NCBI GenBank assembly: GCA_964432435.1 | Contig: CAYSNL010000001.1 | Span: forward strand, 10,511 to 74,510 | Direction: 5' to 3' | DNA: 64,000 nucleotides | DNA from: Candidatus Woesearchaeota archaeon | GTDB lineage: Archaea > Nanobdellota > Nanobdellia > SCGC-AAA011-G17 > JACPIM01 | Shown: piece after piece, positions 34,409 to 54,585 of the stretch | Position numbering within the stretch: position 1 is the first letter of the stretch | Layout of the letters: every line of letters starts with the position of its first letter | Notes under the pieces: model-generated | Database searches by the model: none | Told to the model about the DNA's origin: nothing | Seen by the model: only the letters and a program-made list of their open reading frames with translations | Position numbers and translations under genes: made by a program

Positions 34409-35629
34409 ATGGAGTCATATAACTATATAGAGTCAGGAATTGTCTTTTCATTAAAAGACAGAAGATCATTAGAGAAGTTTAAATACCAAAGTAAAGATTT
34501 CTCGGTTCACCAAAAAACAATAGATTTTGTATTAAACTATTCTGAAAATTATGAGAATTTTCCAACTGAAGCTCTATTATTAGAGAAATTTCCAGACCTT
34601 GATAAAAATGCCGTTGGATTAGACATAGAATATTGCCTCCAAGAATTTGACAAACAACTAATATTCCGGAAGACAGTAGAAGTAATAAATAGCAATAAAG
34701 ACCTATTAAAATCAGAGCCTAAAAATGCCATAAAGAAAATATTGTCCGGCCTGGAAGACGTAGAATTATCATTTGATGATGACATAGAGATATATGACAA
34801 TGGGGCACTCAGTAGGTTAGAAGACTATAATAAAAAGGTAGAATTACGGAATAAGGGACTAAAAACACTAGGCATTCCAACTAGCTTCAAAACAATAAAT
34901 AGAACTACAATCGGGTGGATGAAAGGAGATTTAGTTTCTATCTTTGCTAGGCCTGGCATTGGAAAAACTTTTTTATTGATTCATGCAGCAGCAGTGGCCT
35001 ATAAATTTGGGTTCAAGGTGTTGTTCATTTCTACAGAGATGTCCAAAGCTGCTATCAATGCTAGGATGGATGTAATGCTAGGGAAGATGTATGGATATGA
35101 CTTTTCACACACGTCAATTAGGAGAGGAGAAGGCTTAGATAAAGAAAAATACAAGGAATTCCTAACAAAGCTAAATTCAAAGCGTCTAATAGTTTTAGAT
35201 AGCATAGAAAGAAATGCTATAACATATAATGGGATAGCCTCAAAAGTTAGGAAATATAAACCAGACTTGCTAGTTCTAGATGGGATACAATTAATAGCTT
35301 CTGAAAAATCATCAAATGCTGTATGGGAAAAAATGTTTAACTTATTCTATGGCATAAAGACCCTATCATTATCATCACAAATAACTAGCATTGTTTCTAC
35401 TCAAGCGAATAGAAAAGCTGCTGATTTATTTGTACCGCCCAAAGTCGCAGAAGTAGCATTTGGAGACGCTTTAATACAAGCATCAGATTATGCTATGTCT
35501 CTATGCAGAGTCAGAAATGAACCCTTACAGCTATTAGTGCAATTTCAAAAATTTAGGGATGAGGCCTTTCCCGCCGATTATGTAACAATGCATTGGGACG
35601 TAGATAAAGGAGATATAAAAGAAATATAA
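34409..35629 (+). CDS. DnaB-like replicative DNA helicase
   Basis: Walker A ARPGIGKTFLLIHAA followed by FISTEMS, as in DnaB RecA-like domain. Confidence 0.8.
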   Translation: MESYNYIESGIVFSLKDRRSLEKFKYQSKDFSVHQKTIDFVLNYSENYENFPTEALLLEKFPDLDKNAVGLDIEYCLQEFDKQLIFRKTVEVINSNKDLLKSEPKNAIKKILSGLEDVELSFDDDIEIYDNGALSRLEDYNKKVELRNKGLKTLGIPTSFKTINRTTIGWMKGDLVSIFARPGIGKTFLLIHAAAVAYKFGFKVLFISTEMSKAAINARMDVMLGKMYGYDFSHTSIRRGEGLDKEKYKEFLTKLNSKRLIVLDSIERNAITYNGIASKVRKYKPDLLVLDGIQLIASEKSSNAVWEKMFNLFYGIKTLSLSSQITSIVSTQANRKAADLFVPPKVAEVAFGDALIQASDYAMSLCRVRNEPLQLLVQFQKFRDEAFPADYVTMHWDVDKGDIKEI

Positions 35630-35838
35630 TGCCATATCTTGAAATTCCATATGAATTAGCAGATGAAATAGCGGATTGGGCGGGTGTCTATGGGGGCCAT
35701 GATGAAATATGTAATCCTAGACAAAGAATACAAGATAAATGTAGAATCTGTTTTACTGAAGAATTAGTAGATAGAATTAAAAAAAGTGTGGAGAATGAAG
35801 AAAAATATTATGCAATGTATCTTAGACCTCCTATATAA
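35629..35838 (+). CDS. Hypothetical small protein
   Basis: 69-aa ORF coupled to the helicase gene. Confidence 0.4.
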   Translation: MPYLEIPYELADEIADWAGVYGGHDEICNPRQRIQDKCRICFTEELVDRIKKSVENEEKYYAMYLRPPI

Positions 35839-35846
35839 TACTACAT

Positions 35847-35921
35847 GGCGGGGTGGAGCAGCGGCAGCTCGTTGGGCTCATAACCCAAAGGTCGTTGGTT
35901 CGAATCCAACCCCCGTCTCCC
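35847..35921 (+). tRNA. tRNA-Met (anticodon CAU); anticodon stem has the three G-C pairs typical of initiator tRNA. A lysidine-type tRNA-Ile2 cannot be excluded
   Basis: Acceptor GGCGGGG/CCCCGTC. D-arm GAGC-AGCGGCA-GCTC. Anticodon arm TTGGG-CTCATAA-CCCAA. T-arm GTTGG-TTCGAAT-CCAAC. Confidence 0.75.
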
Positions 35922-36307
35922 AAGACAATAATTAAAACTTTAAGAGCATAAAGGAGATGTAAAATGGAAAAACAACGCAACAAAGAAGTCCGAATTTTAG
36001 ACGACAAAGAAGGTAGTGAGCTTTTCTATTCATGGATGAAAGAATTGACATTAGACCAGCAAAACTGTATAAGAATATTCCTAAGATCAAATGATTTTAA
36101 ACATGAGTAAAACATAGGATTAAAATGAAGAAACAAACAACACATCATATTCCTAATTCAATAAAAAAAGACTTACCAAATCCTAATTGCAAATGTGGTA
36201 AACCAATGCGGATTGTGATTCAACCAGGCCAACATATTCATCCATGTCCCGTTCATCCAGACAAAGCCGTGTATGGCTTAAATATAATTTATAGAAAACC
36301 ACTAAGA

Positions 36308-36385
36308 GCAGCAATAGCTCAATTAGGTAGAGCAGATGTCTTATATACATCCAGGCTGAAGGTTCAAATCCTTCTTGCTGCACCA
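36308..36385 (+). tRNA. tRNA-Ile (anticodon UAU, reads AUA), with encoded CCA
   Basis: Acceptor GCAGCAA/TTGCTGC. D-arm GCTC-AATTAGGTA-GAGC. Anticodon arm GATGT-CTTATAT-ACATC. T-arm GAAGG-TTCAAAT-CCTTC. Discriminator A then CCA. Confidence 0.7.
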
Positions 36386-36457
36386 GTTAAATTAACTATT
36401 GGAAAATGCCCCTAGAACCTCCTAGAATGAAATCTGCAGGGGTTCTTTAAAAGAGTT

Positions 36458-37342
36458 ATGGTAAACTACTTAGACTGGGTTAAAAAGATTGGAATTGATG
36501 GTCGTTTTAGTGGAAATGAATACATAGCCTGCTGCCCATTACACGGAGAGAAACATCCTAGCTTTAGTCTCAATTTACAAACAGGGTTGTGGAATTGTTT
36601 TTCTAATTGTGGTGGAGGGAATTTTGTCTCTTTAGTTCAAAAAGTATATGATGTTAGCTTATTAGAAGCAACTAAACTAATATCTGATGAGATGCCTGGA
36701 CAGATAAATTTCGACTTAGACATTGAAGAAGACAATACAAATTTAGTGCTTCCAGAGGTTAAATTCCCATTTGTTAGAAATAATTTTCCAAAATGGATAT
36801 TAGATAGAGGCTTTACCAAAGACATACTAACTAAATGGAAGTGTGGCTTTAATCCAGATAGTGGTTCATTTGTAATTTCAGTATATGATGAAAAGAAAAG
36901 ATTAGTTGGTTGGATATGCCGACAGCCTAATGGAAAAGAGCCAAAGTACATAAATTCTACGGGTCTAGAAAAATCAAAAATAGTTTTTGGCCTATATAAT
37001 ATTAAGCAGAGAAGAATAGTATGCGTAACAGAGGGGGCATTAAATACAATTTGGTTAAATCAACATGGTTTTTCTTCAGTGGCAATTTTAGGGGCAAGAC
37101 TATCAAGACGACAGGAGGAACTTTTATCAATAGCACCAATAACTGAACTAATTATTTGTTTAGACAATGATGAAGCAGGAAGAAAAGGAAGAGATGAAAT
37201 ATATGCCATAATGAAAAAATACTTTCAAATATCATTTATACAAATCCCAAATGAATACAATGATGTTCAAGACATTAAAGATCCAAAATTACTGACAAAC
37301 ATAATTAAAAACAGAACAATGTTCAAAGAAGGAGTTATTTAG
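36458..37342 (+). CDS. DnaG-like DNA primase (zinc finger + TOPRIM)
   Basis: CHC2-type zinc finger CCPLHGEKHPSFSLN near N-terminus. Confidence 0.75.
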   Translation: MVNYLDWVKKIGIDGRFSGNEYIACCPLHGEKHPSFSLNLQTGLWNCFSNCGGGNFVSLVQKVYDVSLLEATKLISDEMPGQINFDLDIEEDNTNLVLPEVKFPFVRNNFPKWILDRGFTKDILTKWKCGFNPDSGSFVISVYDEKKRLVGWICRQPNGKEPKYINSTGLEKSKIVFGLYNIKQRRIVCVTEGALNTIWLNQHGFSSVAILGARLSRRQEELLSIAPITELIICLDNDEAGRKGRDEIYAIMKKYFQISFIQIPNEYNDVQDIKDPKLLTNIIKNRTMFKEGVI

Positions 37343-53097: not shown

Positions 53098-54585
53098 ATG
53101 TATCAAGTCATCGGGAAAAATTATATAAATGGTCAATGGGTGGAGCTCAAGAATCATTTTTATTCATTAAATCCGTCTAATACAAATGAAGATATCGGGA
53201 TTTTTCCTCAGTCTGTATATTCTGAAGTAGATTTAGCTGTTGAGGCTGCAAAAGATGCCTTTAGATCTTGGAAAAGTTTGTCTAGAATTAATAGGGCGGA
53301 GTATTTTAATGCATTTGTAAAAAATGTGGAGAAAAATTTTGATGAACTTGTGCATTTAATGTGTAGGGAAAGCGGAAAACAAATAAATGAATGCAAAGCT
53401 GATGTAATTGAAGGGATTCATATGGCTCAATATAACTTTGGTAGAGCAAGGATGCCATATGGAGAAGTAATGGCATCAGAAATTGCTAGTAAGGATGCAT
53501 TTATGTTGCGAAAACCAAAAGGGGTAATCGCAGCAATAACTCCTTGGAATTTTCCGTTTGCTATTCCTTTATGGTTAATTATTCCATCTTTGCTAGAAGG
53601 AAACACTGTTGTATTCAAACCGTCAGAAGACACTCCTGCTGTAGGAGAATTTTTAGTTAAAATGTTTGATGAAGTTAGTTTACCCCCAGGAGTATTAAAT
53701 CTAGTTCAGGGAGATGGGGGGACTGGATGGGATTTAGTTACAAATACTGATATTAAGGTAGTGTTATTTACTGGCTCCTATGCTGTTGGGTCTAAAATTA
53801 GGAAAGAATGTGCTGGTTCTATAGACAAAATGGCAGTGTGCGAGATGGGCGGGAAAAACGCTATTATTGTGTTGGAAGATGCAGATTTGGATTTAGCAGT
53901 AAATGCATGCATTTTAAGTGCCTTCAAAACTGCTGGTCAAAGATGTGTATCTGCTTCCAGATTGATAGTTCATAGGTCTATTTTGAAAGAATTTGAGGAT
54001 AAATTTGTAAATAAGGCTAAAAATTTAATAGTTGGGGATCCTCTTGATTCAAGCACCTTTATGGGGCCAGTAATAAATCTAGAGGCTATTAATAAAATTT
54101 TGTCTTATAATGATATGGCTCGGAAAGAGGGTGTTGAAATATTATTAAATGGTTCCAGACTTGTAGAAGGGAAATATTGGGATGGGTATTTCATGTCTCC
54201 ATTTGTATATGAAACGGAAAATAGATTTTCTAAAGTCTTGAAGGAAGAGGTGTTTGGGCCTCATGTGGCTATTATCCCATTTGATACATTAGAAGATGCA
54301 GTCAGTCTATATAATAGTACTGATTATGGTTTTGCATTAGCTGTAATATCTAATGATTATCGTAAGATTAAATATTTACAGCAGAATTGTGATTTTGGAG
54401 TGGGATATGTAAATCTTCCCAGCATAGGCGCAGAAGTTCATTTGCCATTTGGTGGTACAAAGAAGAGTGGTTCTGGGATGCCTTCAGCCTCTGCTTTAAT
54501 TGATGCTGTAACACACAGAGTAGCCTGGACTGTTAACTATGCAGATGAAATTCAATTAGCCCAAGGATTAAATGCAAAGGTATGA
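53098..54585 (+). CDS. NAD(P)-dependent aldehyde dehydrogenase
   Basis: ALDH Glu site CEMGGKNAI, Cys site FKTAGQRCVSASR, cofactor-binding FTGSYAVGSKI, and WNFPFAIP. Confidence 0.9.
   Translation: MYQVIGKNYINGQWVELKNHFYSLNPSNTNEDIGIFPQSVYSEVDLAVEAAKDAFRSWKSLSRINRAEYFNAFVKNVEKNFDELVHLMCRESGKQINECKADVIEGIHMAQYNFGRARMPYGEVMASEIASKDAFMLRKPKGVIAAITPWNFPFAIPLWLIIPSLLEGNTVVFKPSEDTPAVGEFLVKMFDEVSLPPGVLNLVQGDGGTGWDLVTNTDIKVVLFTGSYAVGSKIRKECAGSIDKMAVCEMGGKNAIIVLEDADLDLAVNACILSAFKTAGQRCVSASRLIVHRSILKEFEDKFVNKAKNLIVGDPLDSSTFMGPVINLEAINKILSYNDMARKEGVEILLNGSRLVEGKYWDGYFMSPFVYETENRFSKVLKEEVFGPHVAIIPFDTLEDAVSLYNSTDYGFALAVISNDYRKIKYLQQNCDFGVGYVNLPSIGAEVHLPFGGTKKSGSGMPSASALIDAVTHRVAWTVNYADEIQLAQGLNAKV

Follow-up and report, generated by a model that had tools for sequence, protein, structure and literature searches.

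The interval between the DnaB-like helicase and DnaG-like primase genes of the analysed window (the whole stretch of DNA, 64,000 nucleotides) carries two tRNA genes, tRNA-Met(CAU) and tRNA-Ile(UAU). The explanation of the locus that we favour, at a confidence slightly above even, is that tRNA-Ile serves AUA/UUA supply, that tRNA-Met is an elongator-like molecule derived from an initiator, and that a 56-codon gene upstream of tRNA-Ile has lost its stop codon. Phages often encode tRNAs, and the locus is for the most part ordinary phage biology; its one rare feature is a tRNA-Met altered in its last three bases. An AT-rich phage supplying tRNAs for A-ending codons and a gene caller running an ORF through a tRNA gene are both already known and routine.

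The source is an uncultured AT-rich phage with ~35% GC and a size of roughly 110 kb. Coordinates are those of the window, and all features described lie on the forward strand. Pfam and PHROG matches of the flanking genes bore out the placement of the two tRNAs between helicase and primase in the preliminary description. The left flank is a DnaB-like replicative helicase (34409..35629, MBI2020104.1 in the source's own naming; Pfam DnaB_C at 2.6e-20, PHROG 19 at 9e-43), and the right flank is a DnaG-type primase (36458..37342; Pfam Zn_ribbon_DnaG and Toprim, PHROG 47 at 2.9e-48). The replication module around the locus is phage-typical and of the lytic type, and no integrase was found among the proteins scanned from the window contig. 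The locus sequence is the same in two independent SRA assemblies and the NCBI record.

Between the flanking genes lies a putative lineage-specific accessory block, made up of ORF69, tRNA-Met(CAU), ORF48, a Cys/His-protein gene and tRNA-Ile(UAU). None of the three small ORFs of the interval gave a family match in Pfam or PHROGs, among them ORF69 (35629..35838), which is missing from the sister phage L262, and ORF48 (35964..36110). A direct-repeat search returned a 17-nt pair (family D1) that flanks the segment of ORF69 and tRNA-Met on both sides. Its first copy, ATAAAGGAGATATAAAA, lies inside the 3' end of the helicase gene (35604..35620), and its second, ATAAAGGAGATGTAAAA, in the ribosome-binding region of ORF48 (35948..35964). 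The repeat could mark a cassette junction, or could be a convergent ribosome-binding sequence. A further motif, AAATGCCCCTAGAACCTCCTAGAATGA (36404..36430), is located 3' of tRNA-Ile and ahead of the primase gene, and is conserved in L262. It occurs once in the whole window, contains the promoter-like -10 element TAGAAT, and overlaps a promoter-like match at 36399-36428.

In relatives whose helicases are 47-50% identical, the helicase-primase interval is devoid of tRNAs. The sister phage L262, with a primase 77% identical, has only the homologous tRNA slot, in which the tRNA at the position of tRNA-Ile contains stem mismatches and scores 45 bits. Homology to L262 starts about 2 nt 5' of tRNA-Ile, such that 2-4 spacer bases align and the upstream cassette does not. 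Searches of GenBank phage DNA with the 3.7-kb locus (megablast), tRNA-Ile (blastn) and the 96-aa ORF (tblastn) gave no match, and the primase query gave no confirmed relative in IMG/VR.

Both tRNAs are bona fide. The two clean cloverleaves noted earlier were called by ARAGORN, and scored 66.3 bits (tRNA-Met) and 66.9 bits (tRNA-Ile) against Rfam RF00005 (gathering threshold 29 bits), with E ~1e-12, full-length alignment and no non-canonical pairs flagged.

The tRNA-Met gene (35847..35918; 35847-35920 by ARAGORN; anticodon CAT at 35879-35881) combines an initiator-type body with an elongator-type acceptor end. The initiator-like character and paired 1:72 attributed to it previously were confirmed by inspection of the sequence and of its Rfam alignment. 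The anticodon arm, UUGGG-CUCAUAA-CCCAA, contains the three G-C pairs of initiators (G29-C41, G30-C40, G31-C39), and the D stem, GAGC/GCUC, provides A11:U24, a mark of initiator tRNAs. At the acceptor end, the 1x72 mismatch is replaced by the Watson-Crick pair G1:C72, and G2:C71 and A73 are replaced by G2.U71 and U73, with C3:G70 kept. The stem is a perfect 7 bp, without disabling mismatches. The molecule is not a standard elongator either, since 1:72 is paired but the three G-C pairs are kept and position 73 is U. CCA is not encoded, the trailer being CCCAAG. Identity to approximate E. coli reference sequences was 82% for tRNAfMet and 61% for elongator tRNA-Met. A lysidine-type tRNA-Ile2(CAU) was considered and rejected, as the body is of the initiator type and identity to E. 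coli tRNA-Ile2 (likewise an approximate reference) is 56%. U73 may weaken charging of tRNA-Met by MetRS.

Nucleotides 1-50 of tRNA-Met are identical to those of a Chloroflexia G1xA72 initiator in L190 (67/72 positions overall), and its T-arm is the same as in an Elusimicrobia initiator. Compared with cellular G1xA72 initiators, it differs at positions 71-73 and beyond, and in one compensated T-stem pair; positions 71-73 are UCU, where G1xA72-type initiators have CAA. A G1xA72 initiator is normal in several phyla, and G1 as a phage-specific change was accordingly rejected. G1 of tRNA-Met is ancestral, and the distinctive part is UCU at 71-73. The G1xA72 initiators of Chloroflexota, Dormibacterota and Acidobacteriota share with it the CAU anticodon, the three G-C pairs and A11:U24, whereas the window tRNA-Met has G1:C72, G2.U71 and U73, without encoded CCA. 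UCU at 71-73 could also be mere junction sequence from imprecise capture.

This acceptor end is rare. Among 76 viral initiator-like tRNAs, G:C at 1:72 was found once, in the window's own tRNA, U73 and G2.U71 were found in three each, and A73 in 73. The cellular G1-type initiators showed G1xA72 in 105/110, G:C at 1:72 in 3/110 and A73 in 110/110. Four viral contigs contain initiator-like tRNAs that share an identical 41-nt core with tRNA-Met. A pattern search of 241 million metagenome records, with a pattern that matched the window tRNA-Met itself when checked, returned only two further tRNAs of the same design, one of which is located at a tRNA integration junction beside an integrase.

We hypothesize that tRNA-Met was derived from a cellular G1xA72-type initiator by the change of 71-73 from CAA to UCU. 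This change would close 1:72 and remove the 1x72 mismatch, G2:C71 and A73, which are used by the formyltransferase and the initiation pathway. The determinants of the formyltransferase are the 1x72 mismatch, 2:71 and 3:70, and a Watson-Crick 1:72 makes the initiator a poor formyltransferase substrate that joins elongation (PMC6393288). By analogy with E. coli genetics, we infer that tRNA-Met is poorly formylated, binds EF-Tu and is usable in elongation, mainly as an extra elongator Met-tRNA; because the three G-C pairs are kept, it is possibly dual-use. The E. coli Watson-Crick 1:72 initiator mutants (PMC6393288) share with it the initiator body and the closed 1:72, but they are engineered, whereas the window tRNA-Met is natural and phage-borne, with G2.U71 and U73 in addition.

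The first alternative sees in tRNA-Met a host initiator gene whose copy was captured imperfectly or is decaying, with homology ending at nt 70, junction sequence for the last three bases, and little or no function. We regard this as unlikely. In its favour are the clustering of the differences at 71-73 and beyond, save the compensated T-stem pair, the lack of an encoded CCA, the 17-nt direct repeat that brackets ORF69 and tRNA-Met, and the integrase-adjacent location of one metagenomic look-alike; tRNA genes that are partial or hybrid at such junctions are known to trouble annotation (PMC9897764). A random dinucleotide would pair with G2 and G1 in about 25% of cases, and the closed stem is therefore no strong sign of selection. 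Against this alternative are the perfect acceptor stem and the full 66-bit cloverleaf, which contrast with the mismatched 45-bit tRNA of L262, and also the lytic-type replication module and the lack of an integrase among the scanned contig proteins.

A second alternative, to which we give a rather low probability, is that tRNA-Met is still an initiator, which starts translation without formylation or with residual formylation, and tops up or replaces the host pool, for example after VapC-type cleavage of tRNAfMet. Every feature outside the acceptor end is kept as in cellular initiators, including the three G-C pairs, A11:U24, the anticodon arm and the body. Unformylated initiation is possible, for example with IF2 overproduced (PMC6393288), and compensation of tRNA-targeting defences by phage tRNAs is a published hypothesis (PMC10264068). 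However, each of the three determinants at the acceptor end (1x72, 2:71 and 73) is altered, and in E. coli a Watson-Crick 1:72 leads to EF-Tu diversion and exposure to peptidyl-tRNA hydrolase (PMC6393288). In addition, phages are reported to be generally without a tRNA-fMet gene in settings where this tRNA is a VapC target (PMC10264068), and the unchanged anticodon loop of tRNA-Met would offer no escape from an anticodon-loop nuclease.

The tRNA-Ile(UAU) gene (36308..36385; anticodon TAT at 36342-36344) has A73 and an encoded CCA, and its minimum-energy fold is a cloverleaf. Its anticodon loop, CUUAUAU, has 7 nt with U33 and A37, as expected in sequence for tRNA-Ile(UAU), and the same loop is present in 25/118 viral Ile(UAU) genes. 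Direct decoding of AUA without lysidine, as proposed in the preliminary description, is consistent with the sequence; the label "rare" did not hold for phages, as at least 120 such genes are present in IMG/VR viral contigs. Genes for tRNA-Ile(UAU) are rare in bacteria only. The earlier suggestion of AUA supplementation agrees with codon usage: counting phage genes alone, AUA accounts for 45% of Ile codons (32.8 per 1000) and is the eighth most used codon of the phage. Of the Leu codons, 46% are UUA, and a second tRNA cluster (26458..26662; ARAGORN, Rfam) contains tRNA-His(GUG) and tRNA-Leu(UAA).

We infer that tRNA-Ile(UAU) and the tRNA-Leu(UAA) at 26.6 kb together allow heavily used A-ending codons to be decoded directly, bypassing the host lysidine synthetase in the case of AUA. 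Because tRNA-Ile(UAU) genes are common in viral contigs, the AUA part would be ordinary codon supplementation. It is not obligatory, since the relatives L001-L008 have AUA usage equal to that of the window phage, yet lack a tRNA in the interval. The T4-like phages likewise encode a tRNA for AUA in an AT-rich genome, but theirs is a lysidine-type tRNA-Ile(CAU) that needs host TilS (PMC1524935), whereas in the window phage the UAU anticodon would bypass the modification. Reading of AUA by UAU without lysidine is a property of tRNA-Ile2(UAU) of Mycoplasma mobile and tRNA-Ile(TAT) of Lactobacillus plantarum and L. casei, which have A37 and A73 in common with the window tRNA-Ile (PMC3575796). Unlike these, the window tRNA-Ile is phage-encoded, is not detectably related to them in sequence, and would rely on the IleRS and ribosome of its host. 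Charging of a UAU tRNA and discrimination between AUA and AUG depend on a pocket residue of IleRS (Arg or Trp) and on the ribosome, and with the Trp-type anticodon pocket of E. coli IleRS a UAU tRNA is charged at 1.1% relative kcat/Km (PMC3575796). If the host IleRS has a Trp-type pocket, the window tRNA would by analogy be poorly charged.

That tRNA-Ile(UAU) is poorly charged, or is a defence countermeasure replacing cleaved or acetylated host tRNA-Ile, and is not mainly for codon supply, seems to us improbable. We know of no defence system aimed at tRNA-Ile2. Phage tRNAs have been proposed to counter tRNA-depleting host defences (PMC10264068), an E. coli-type IleRS charges UAU poorly (PMC3575796), and the relatives with equal AUA usage manage without a tRNA at the locus. 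However, the Ile-UAU and Leu-UAA tRNAs of the phage fit its most used A-ending codons, and the set UAU, UAA and UCU recurs in viral contigs, as predicted by rare-codon supply.

The tRNAs found most commonly at the same locus as viral tRNA-Ile(UAU) are CAU tRNAs, Leu(UAA) and Arg(UCU). The nearest neighbour was a CAU tRNA in 20/64 cases, compared with 10% expected. Of 27 CAU tRNAs less than 1 kb from a viral tRNA-Ile(UAU), 26 have a paired 1:72, and 23 have G1:C72 with A73. In the usual viral tandem, the UAU tRNA is followed by the CAU tRNA at a distance of 1-24 nt. The window does not fit this arrangement, as its CAU tRNA precedes the UAU tRNA by 388 nt, and ORF48 and the Cys/His gene intervene. 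The likeness to the IMG/VR tandems therefore consists in a tRNA-Ile(UAU) with a same-locus CAU tRNA whose 1:72 is paired; the tandem CAU tRNAs (Met or Ile2) have A73 and an elongator-like body, in contrast to the initiator body and U73 of the window CAU tRNA. A UAU anticodon can misread AUG, and competition by tRNA-Met lowers the misreading (PMC3575796). A plausible benefit of tRNA-Met would be competition at AUG against the wobble-capable UAU anticodon. That the two tRNAs form a kit for AUA/AUG decoding, in which an initiator turned EF-Tu-competent through 71-73 only is paired with tRNA-Ile(UAU), is a speculative extension for which we would claim only a small probability.

The ORF at 36125-36415 (96 aa), described previously as reading through the tRNA-Ile gene, exists and spans the whole tRNA, the start of which coincides exactly with codon 62. 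The suggestion that its C-terminal part is non-coding was supported by 40 homologues, but the part concerned is 40 residues (57-96) and not one third. The ORF is not wholly spurious, as its N-terminal 56 residues represent a real conserved gene (36125..36292; 41 homologues), encoding a small Cys/His protein with the motif PNCKCGKP..PGQHIHPCPVHPD..YGLNIIY. The ORF was assigned to a Cys/His family (CxCGxP..PGxHIHPCPVHPD..YG; 41 homologues, 71 representative clusters) by profile search (E = 6e-18) and presence of the core motif; C24, G35, H37, H39, C41, P42 and H44 are invariant in the family alignment. Neither an alignment-derived pattern nor a degenerate DNA pattern for HIHPCPVHP gave a match in IMG/VR, which apparently lacks the family in the patterned form. 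A strict association of the Cys/His gene with a following tRNA was rejected, a tRNA lying 10-64 nt downstream in only 3/9 contexts. An AlphaFold model of the 56-aa core with 30 homologues was too poor (mean pLDDT 65.6, pTM 0.26) to justify a fold search.

Of the 41 family members, 33 stop 12-16 residues after CPVH, corresponding to codons 57-61 of the window ORF, which instead continues for 52 residues beyond CPVH. According to the family alignment, the expected stop site is the 15-nt spacer AGA AAA CCA CTA AGA (36293..36307). All five of its codons are sense, so the frame runs on for 40 codons through tRNA-Ile, to the first in-frame stop at 36413. The resulting read-through extension (36293..36415; 40 codons and TAG) covers the spacer, tRNA-Ile and the 3' flank, and is present in no homologue. 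On sequence grounds, we judge that it is probably not genuine coding sequence. A sequencing or assembly error as the origin of the long ORF was ruled out by the identity of two SRA assemblies and the NCBI record. An alternative genetic code or stop recoding was unsupported, as the window genes end normally in TAA, TAG and TGA, and AGA is a common sense codon in them.

The 56-codon gene would thus have lost its stop at the junction with tRNA-Ile. Terminator prediction over 35400-36700 returned none, and because none is predicted between the gene and tRNA-Ile, the two are probably co-transcribed. Cleavage by RNase P at 36307/36308 would leave an mRNA without a stop codon, so that the 96-aa product would be at most a minor, fortuitous species. 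Gene-caller ORFs through tRNA genes are a common annotation artefact, and as in these the C-terminal 40 codons merely translate the tRNA gene and its flanks; unlike in these, the N-terminal 56 codons are real, and the overlap would stem from stop loss at a cassette junction. We consider it very improbable that a functional protein of the full 96 aa is produced, or that the overlap couples translation of the gene to tRNA maturation: the frame is open across the tRNA in three independent assemblies, the upstream ORF of L262 also ends inside the tRNA (TAG at tRNA positions 8-10), and a few family members (P0038, P0040, P0042) have long C-terminal extensions, but the tail is found in 0/40 homologues, those three tails are unrelated to it, its sequence is fully accounted for by tRNA constraints, one open frame of three through a tRNA gene is unremarkable, and RNase P processing would cut the mRNA before any stop.

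This position should be annotated as a tRNA and a 56-aa gene that has lost its stop, and not as a 96-aa protein. To our knowledge, an initiator body with a closed 1:72 is known mainly from E. coli mutagenesis, where it moves the tRNA out of initiation and into elongation; in tRNA-Met, an initiator body with closed 1:72 and U73 occurs naturally. If it is expressed and charged, it would mean that phages exploit the initiation-to-elongation switch, and it would offer a natural test of the three G-C pairs in an elongator context. Were the proposed pairing of the two tRNAs true, the UAU tRNA, possibly with an unmodified U34, would read the abundant AUA without host TilS, and the extra elongator Met-tRNA would win at AUG, resulting in less substitution of Ile for Met; this would also explain why elongator-ended CAU tRNAs are the commonest immediate neighbours of viral tRNA-Ile(UAU). 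The frequency of tRNA-Ile(UAU) in viral contigs and its common proximity to a CAU tRNA suggest a testable rule on how AUA and AUG decoding are kept separate when lysidine is bypassed.

Four tRNA genes, all on the plus strand, were called by ARAGORN in a search of the whole window: tRNA-His(GTG) (26458-26529), tRNA-Leu(TAA) (26579-26662), tRNA-Met(CAT) (35847-35920) and tRNA-Ile(TAT) (36308-36385). The Met and Ile genes matched the Rfam tRNA model over their full length with 66.3 and 66.9 bits, respectively (gathering score 29; E about 1e-12), with 0 non-canonical pairs, and the minimum-energy structure of tRNA-Ile is a cloverleaf. The pair lies between genes for a DnaB-like helicase (34409-35629) and a DnaG-type primase (36458-37342), as the preliminary description had placed it. 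Since the tRNA calls, the flanking genes and the overlap of tRNA-Ile with a 96-aa ORF (36125-36415) were all confirmed, that description is right in all details; its interpretation of the locus is also backed, and the finding is real.

The source genome has the gene complement of a large lytic phage, with SNF2 helicase, DnaB, DnaG, SSB-like protein, UDG-like protein, family-A DNA polymerase, thymidylate synthase and ribonucleotide reductase, and every gene lies on one strand. Comparison with GenBank phages revealed no near match to the locus, the best identity of the helicase to GenBank phage proteins being only about 24%. The presumed structural module (window 1-26000) contains ten large ORFs (including 1416 aa and 1011 aa) with essentially no PHROG match, and the virion module is very divergent. 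Exact window proteins (MBI2020104.1, MBI2020106.1) also occur on a ~110 kb NCBI contig labelled "Candidatus Daviesbacteria bacterium", and are present in Logan assemblies SRR12113430 and SRR12113420, in both of which the region is identical to the window. Given the phage-type gene content, the Daviesbacteria (CPR/Patescibacteria) MAG label probably either reflects a binning artefact or points to a CPR bacterium as the host. A full-length aldehyde dehydrogenase (53098-54585; Pfam Aldedh, 452 bits) lies within the replication/nucleotide-metabolism module, and may be an auxiliary metabolic gene.

The 96-aa ORF runs through the whole of tRNA-Ile, the first base of the tRNA being the first base of codon 62. 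Its C-terminal third had been taken as probably non-coding, and the tail is indeed shared by no homologue. Residues 1-56 (36125-36292) fall in a real, conserved but unnamed small Cys/His family (core CxCGxP..PGxHIHPCPVHPD..YGxxxxx*), for which an indexed database gave 41 hits. When 1.84 billion representative proteins were searched exhaustively the family formed 71 clusters at 50% identity, and it has no family match in Pfam or PHROG. Members, about 50-65 aa long, are encoded among small ORFs on large phage-like contigs, with a tRNA gene 10-64 nt downstream in three of nine gene contexts. The 56-aa core gave a poor AlphaFold model, too uncertain for use.

In 33 of the 41 members the stop lies 12-16 residues past CPVH. 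The corresponding positions in the window are codons 57-61, AGA AAA CCA CUA AGA (36293-36307), which coincide exactly with the 15-nt spacer ahead of tRNA-Ile and include no stop codon, so the frame stays open across the tRNA until a TAG at 36413; neither of the other two frames is open over this stretch. In the sister phage L262 (Logan SRR22388038; primase 77% identical), a different upstream ORF, ORF55, also ends within a tRNA, its TAG being tRNA positions 8-10; evidently, ORFs next to this slot tend to make use of the next available stop codon. No terminator was predicted between the Cys/His gene and tRNA-Ile, so the two are probably co-transcribed, in which case RNase P cleavage of the co-transcript would yield an mRNA that lacks a stop codon.

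IMG/VR relatives with helicases 47-50% identical have the order helicase, small ORF, primase, without a tRNA, and the tRNA-bearing block is lineage-specific. In L262 a single tRNA-like gene fills the slot that directly precedes the primase gene, and both tRNA-Met and the Cys/His gene are missing; homology with the window starts about 2 nt before the tRNA 5' end, whereas the cassettes that lie farther upstream show no relationship. The L262 tRNA (L262:986-1061) differs from the window tRNA-Ile in the acceptor stem by a compensated pair (A3:U70 to C3:G70), and has a 9-nt anticodon loop (UCAUUAGAG), anticodon- and T-stem mismatches and a score of 45 bits with Rfam. ARAGORN called it 'tRNA-Stop (tta)'; possible identities are a tRNA in decay or an unusual decoder of suppressor or frameshift type. 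Directly 3' of the slot, a 27-nt motif with an internal CTAGAA direct repeat, AAATGCCyCTAGAACyTCCTAGAATGA, is conserved (window 36404-36430, its single occurrence there; L262:1074-1100); it overlaps a promoter-like -10 element, and may be a primase promoter or operator. A 17-nt direct repeat, ATAAAGGAGATrTAAAA (35604-35620 and 35948-35964; 16/17 identical), brackets exactly tRNA-Met and the preceding small ORF69 (35629..35838). This repeat may mark cassette insertion by microhomology, or, its sequence being ribosome-binding-like, the copies may be just two similar ribosome-binding sites.

AUA accounts for 45% of Ile codons (32.8 per 1000 codons, the eighth most used codon) and UUA for 46% of Leu codons, so the phage Ile(UAU) and Leu(UAA) tRNAs match heavy codon demand, and the proposal that an AT-rich phage supplements AUA decoding agrees with the count. 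In bacteria AUA is normally decoded by a lysidine-modified CAU tRNA, with UAU tRNAs the exception (PMC3575796). The lysidine type is also that of T4-like phages (PMC1524935), whereas the window phage carries the UAU type. A generic tRNA-Ile(UAU) pattern scan of IMG/VR found at least 120 loci, 118 of these confirmed by ARAGORN; the preliminary description of this tRNA as rare therefore holds for bacteria, with the UAU anticodon confirmed, but not for viruses. Among the matches listed, the tRNAs commonest in the same locus were CAU, Leu(UAA) and Arg(UCU), and the closest viral gene agreed with that of the window at 60/78 positions. A blastn search of GenBank phages gave no match, and the gene has no close relative in either set. 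UAU is charged poorly by E. coli-type IleRS, and can misread AUG unless the ribosome or tRNA-Met competition prevents this (PMC3575796); for this phage both effects would depend on the host.

Neighbours were examined for 106 distinct viral tRNA-Ile(UAU) genes among the IMG/VR matches listed (L263-L381), of which 64 had another tRNA within 1 kb. The nearest tRNA was CAU in 20/64 (31% versus 10% expected; binomial p about 3e-6, a rough guide as the loci are not independent), and lay directly downstream in 19 of these 20. A tandem in which a CAU tRNA lies 1-24 nt downstream of tRNA-Ile(UAU) is recurrent (e.g. L271, L279, L287, L302, L340). The 27 CAU tRNAs within 1 kb included none of initiator-like type; 1:72 was paired in 26, and G1:C72 with A73 was present in 23. 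These partners, elongator Met or lysidine-type Ile2, are not paralogues of the UAU tRNAs. The window combines the same two functions, but in another layout and with an initiator-derived CAU body. We hypothesize, following a remark in PMC3575796, that an extra elongator Met-tRNA might limit AUG misreading by UAU.

The tRNA-Met has the initiator hallmarks of three G-C pairs beside the anticodon loop and A11:U24, yet G:C at 1:72; the three G-C pairs and the paired 1:72 had been noticed in the preliminary description. Over a 41-nt core it is identical to initiator-like tRNAs of other viral contigs. Among 76 distinct initiator-like tRNAs from IMG/VR, 1:72 is mismatched or weakly paired in all but one, the sole G:C being that of the window; A73 is present in 73 and G2:C71 in 72. 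The textbook initiator form is C1xA72. When GTDB species genomes were searched for initiator anticodon arms combined with G at position 1 (loci L143-L261), G1 initiators proved to be normal in Chloroflexota, Dormibacterota, Acidobacteriota and others, with G1xA72 kept in 105 of 110 parsed and A73 in all 110. The closest cellular relative, a Chloroflexia initiator (L190), is identical over nt 1-50, including the D-loop AGCGGCA, and differs only in one compensated T-stem pair and at positions 71-73 (UCU in the window, CAA in L190). A search of 241 million metagenome records with a validated design pattern (GGCGGGG...CCCCGyC plus the initiator arm) gave only two loci, one adjoining an integrase. 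Judged from these viral, cellular and metagenome comparisons, the oddity is real and rare, and it is limited to the three terminal nucleotides.

Two other arrangements were seen. In two genomes of the GTDB scan (L235 and L249) the mismatch is shifted to 2:71, with U2xC71 and G1:C72. A tight array at L245:3378-3702 (JBAZLK010000002.1, a 'Patescibacteria group' MAG) comprises Glu, UGA-reading tRNA(UCA), tRNA-Met and Thr(AGU), and resembles a phage-type array that includes a suppressor tRNA; its tRNA-Met has an initiator body and a fully paired acceptor stem (G1:C72, C2:G71).

The main rival explanation is that UCU at positions 71-73 may be junction sequence left by imprecise capture; by chance, pairing to G2 and G1 would be expected in about one case in four. 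In E. coli, the 1x72 mismatch, with 2:71 and 3:70, directs formylation, bars EF-Tu and shields from peptidyl-tRNA hydrolase, and an initiator with a Watson-Crick 1:72 is a poor formyltransferase substrate and is active in elongation (PMC6393288). The locus is mostly ordinary, consisting of phage tRNAs that serve A-ending codons, plus an ORF whose annotation was carried on across a tRNA gene. Its sole unusual element is a natural initiator-bodied tRNA-Met with closed 1:72, G2.U71 and U73, a rare variant. By analogy with the E. coli effects of a closed 1:72, this tRNA-Met would most likely serve as an elongator or have a dual use.
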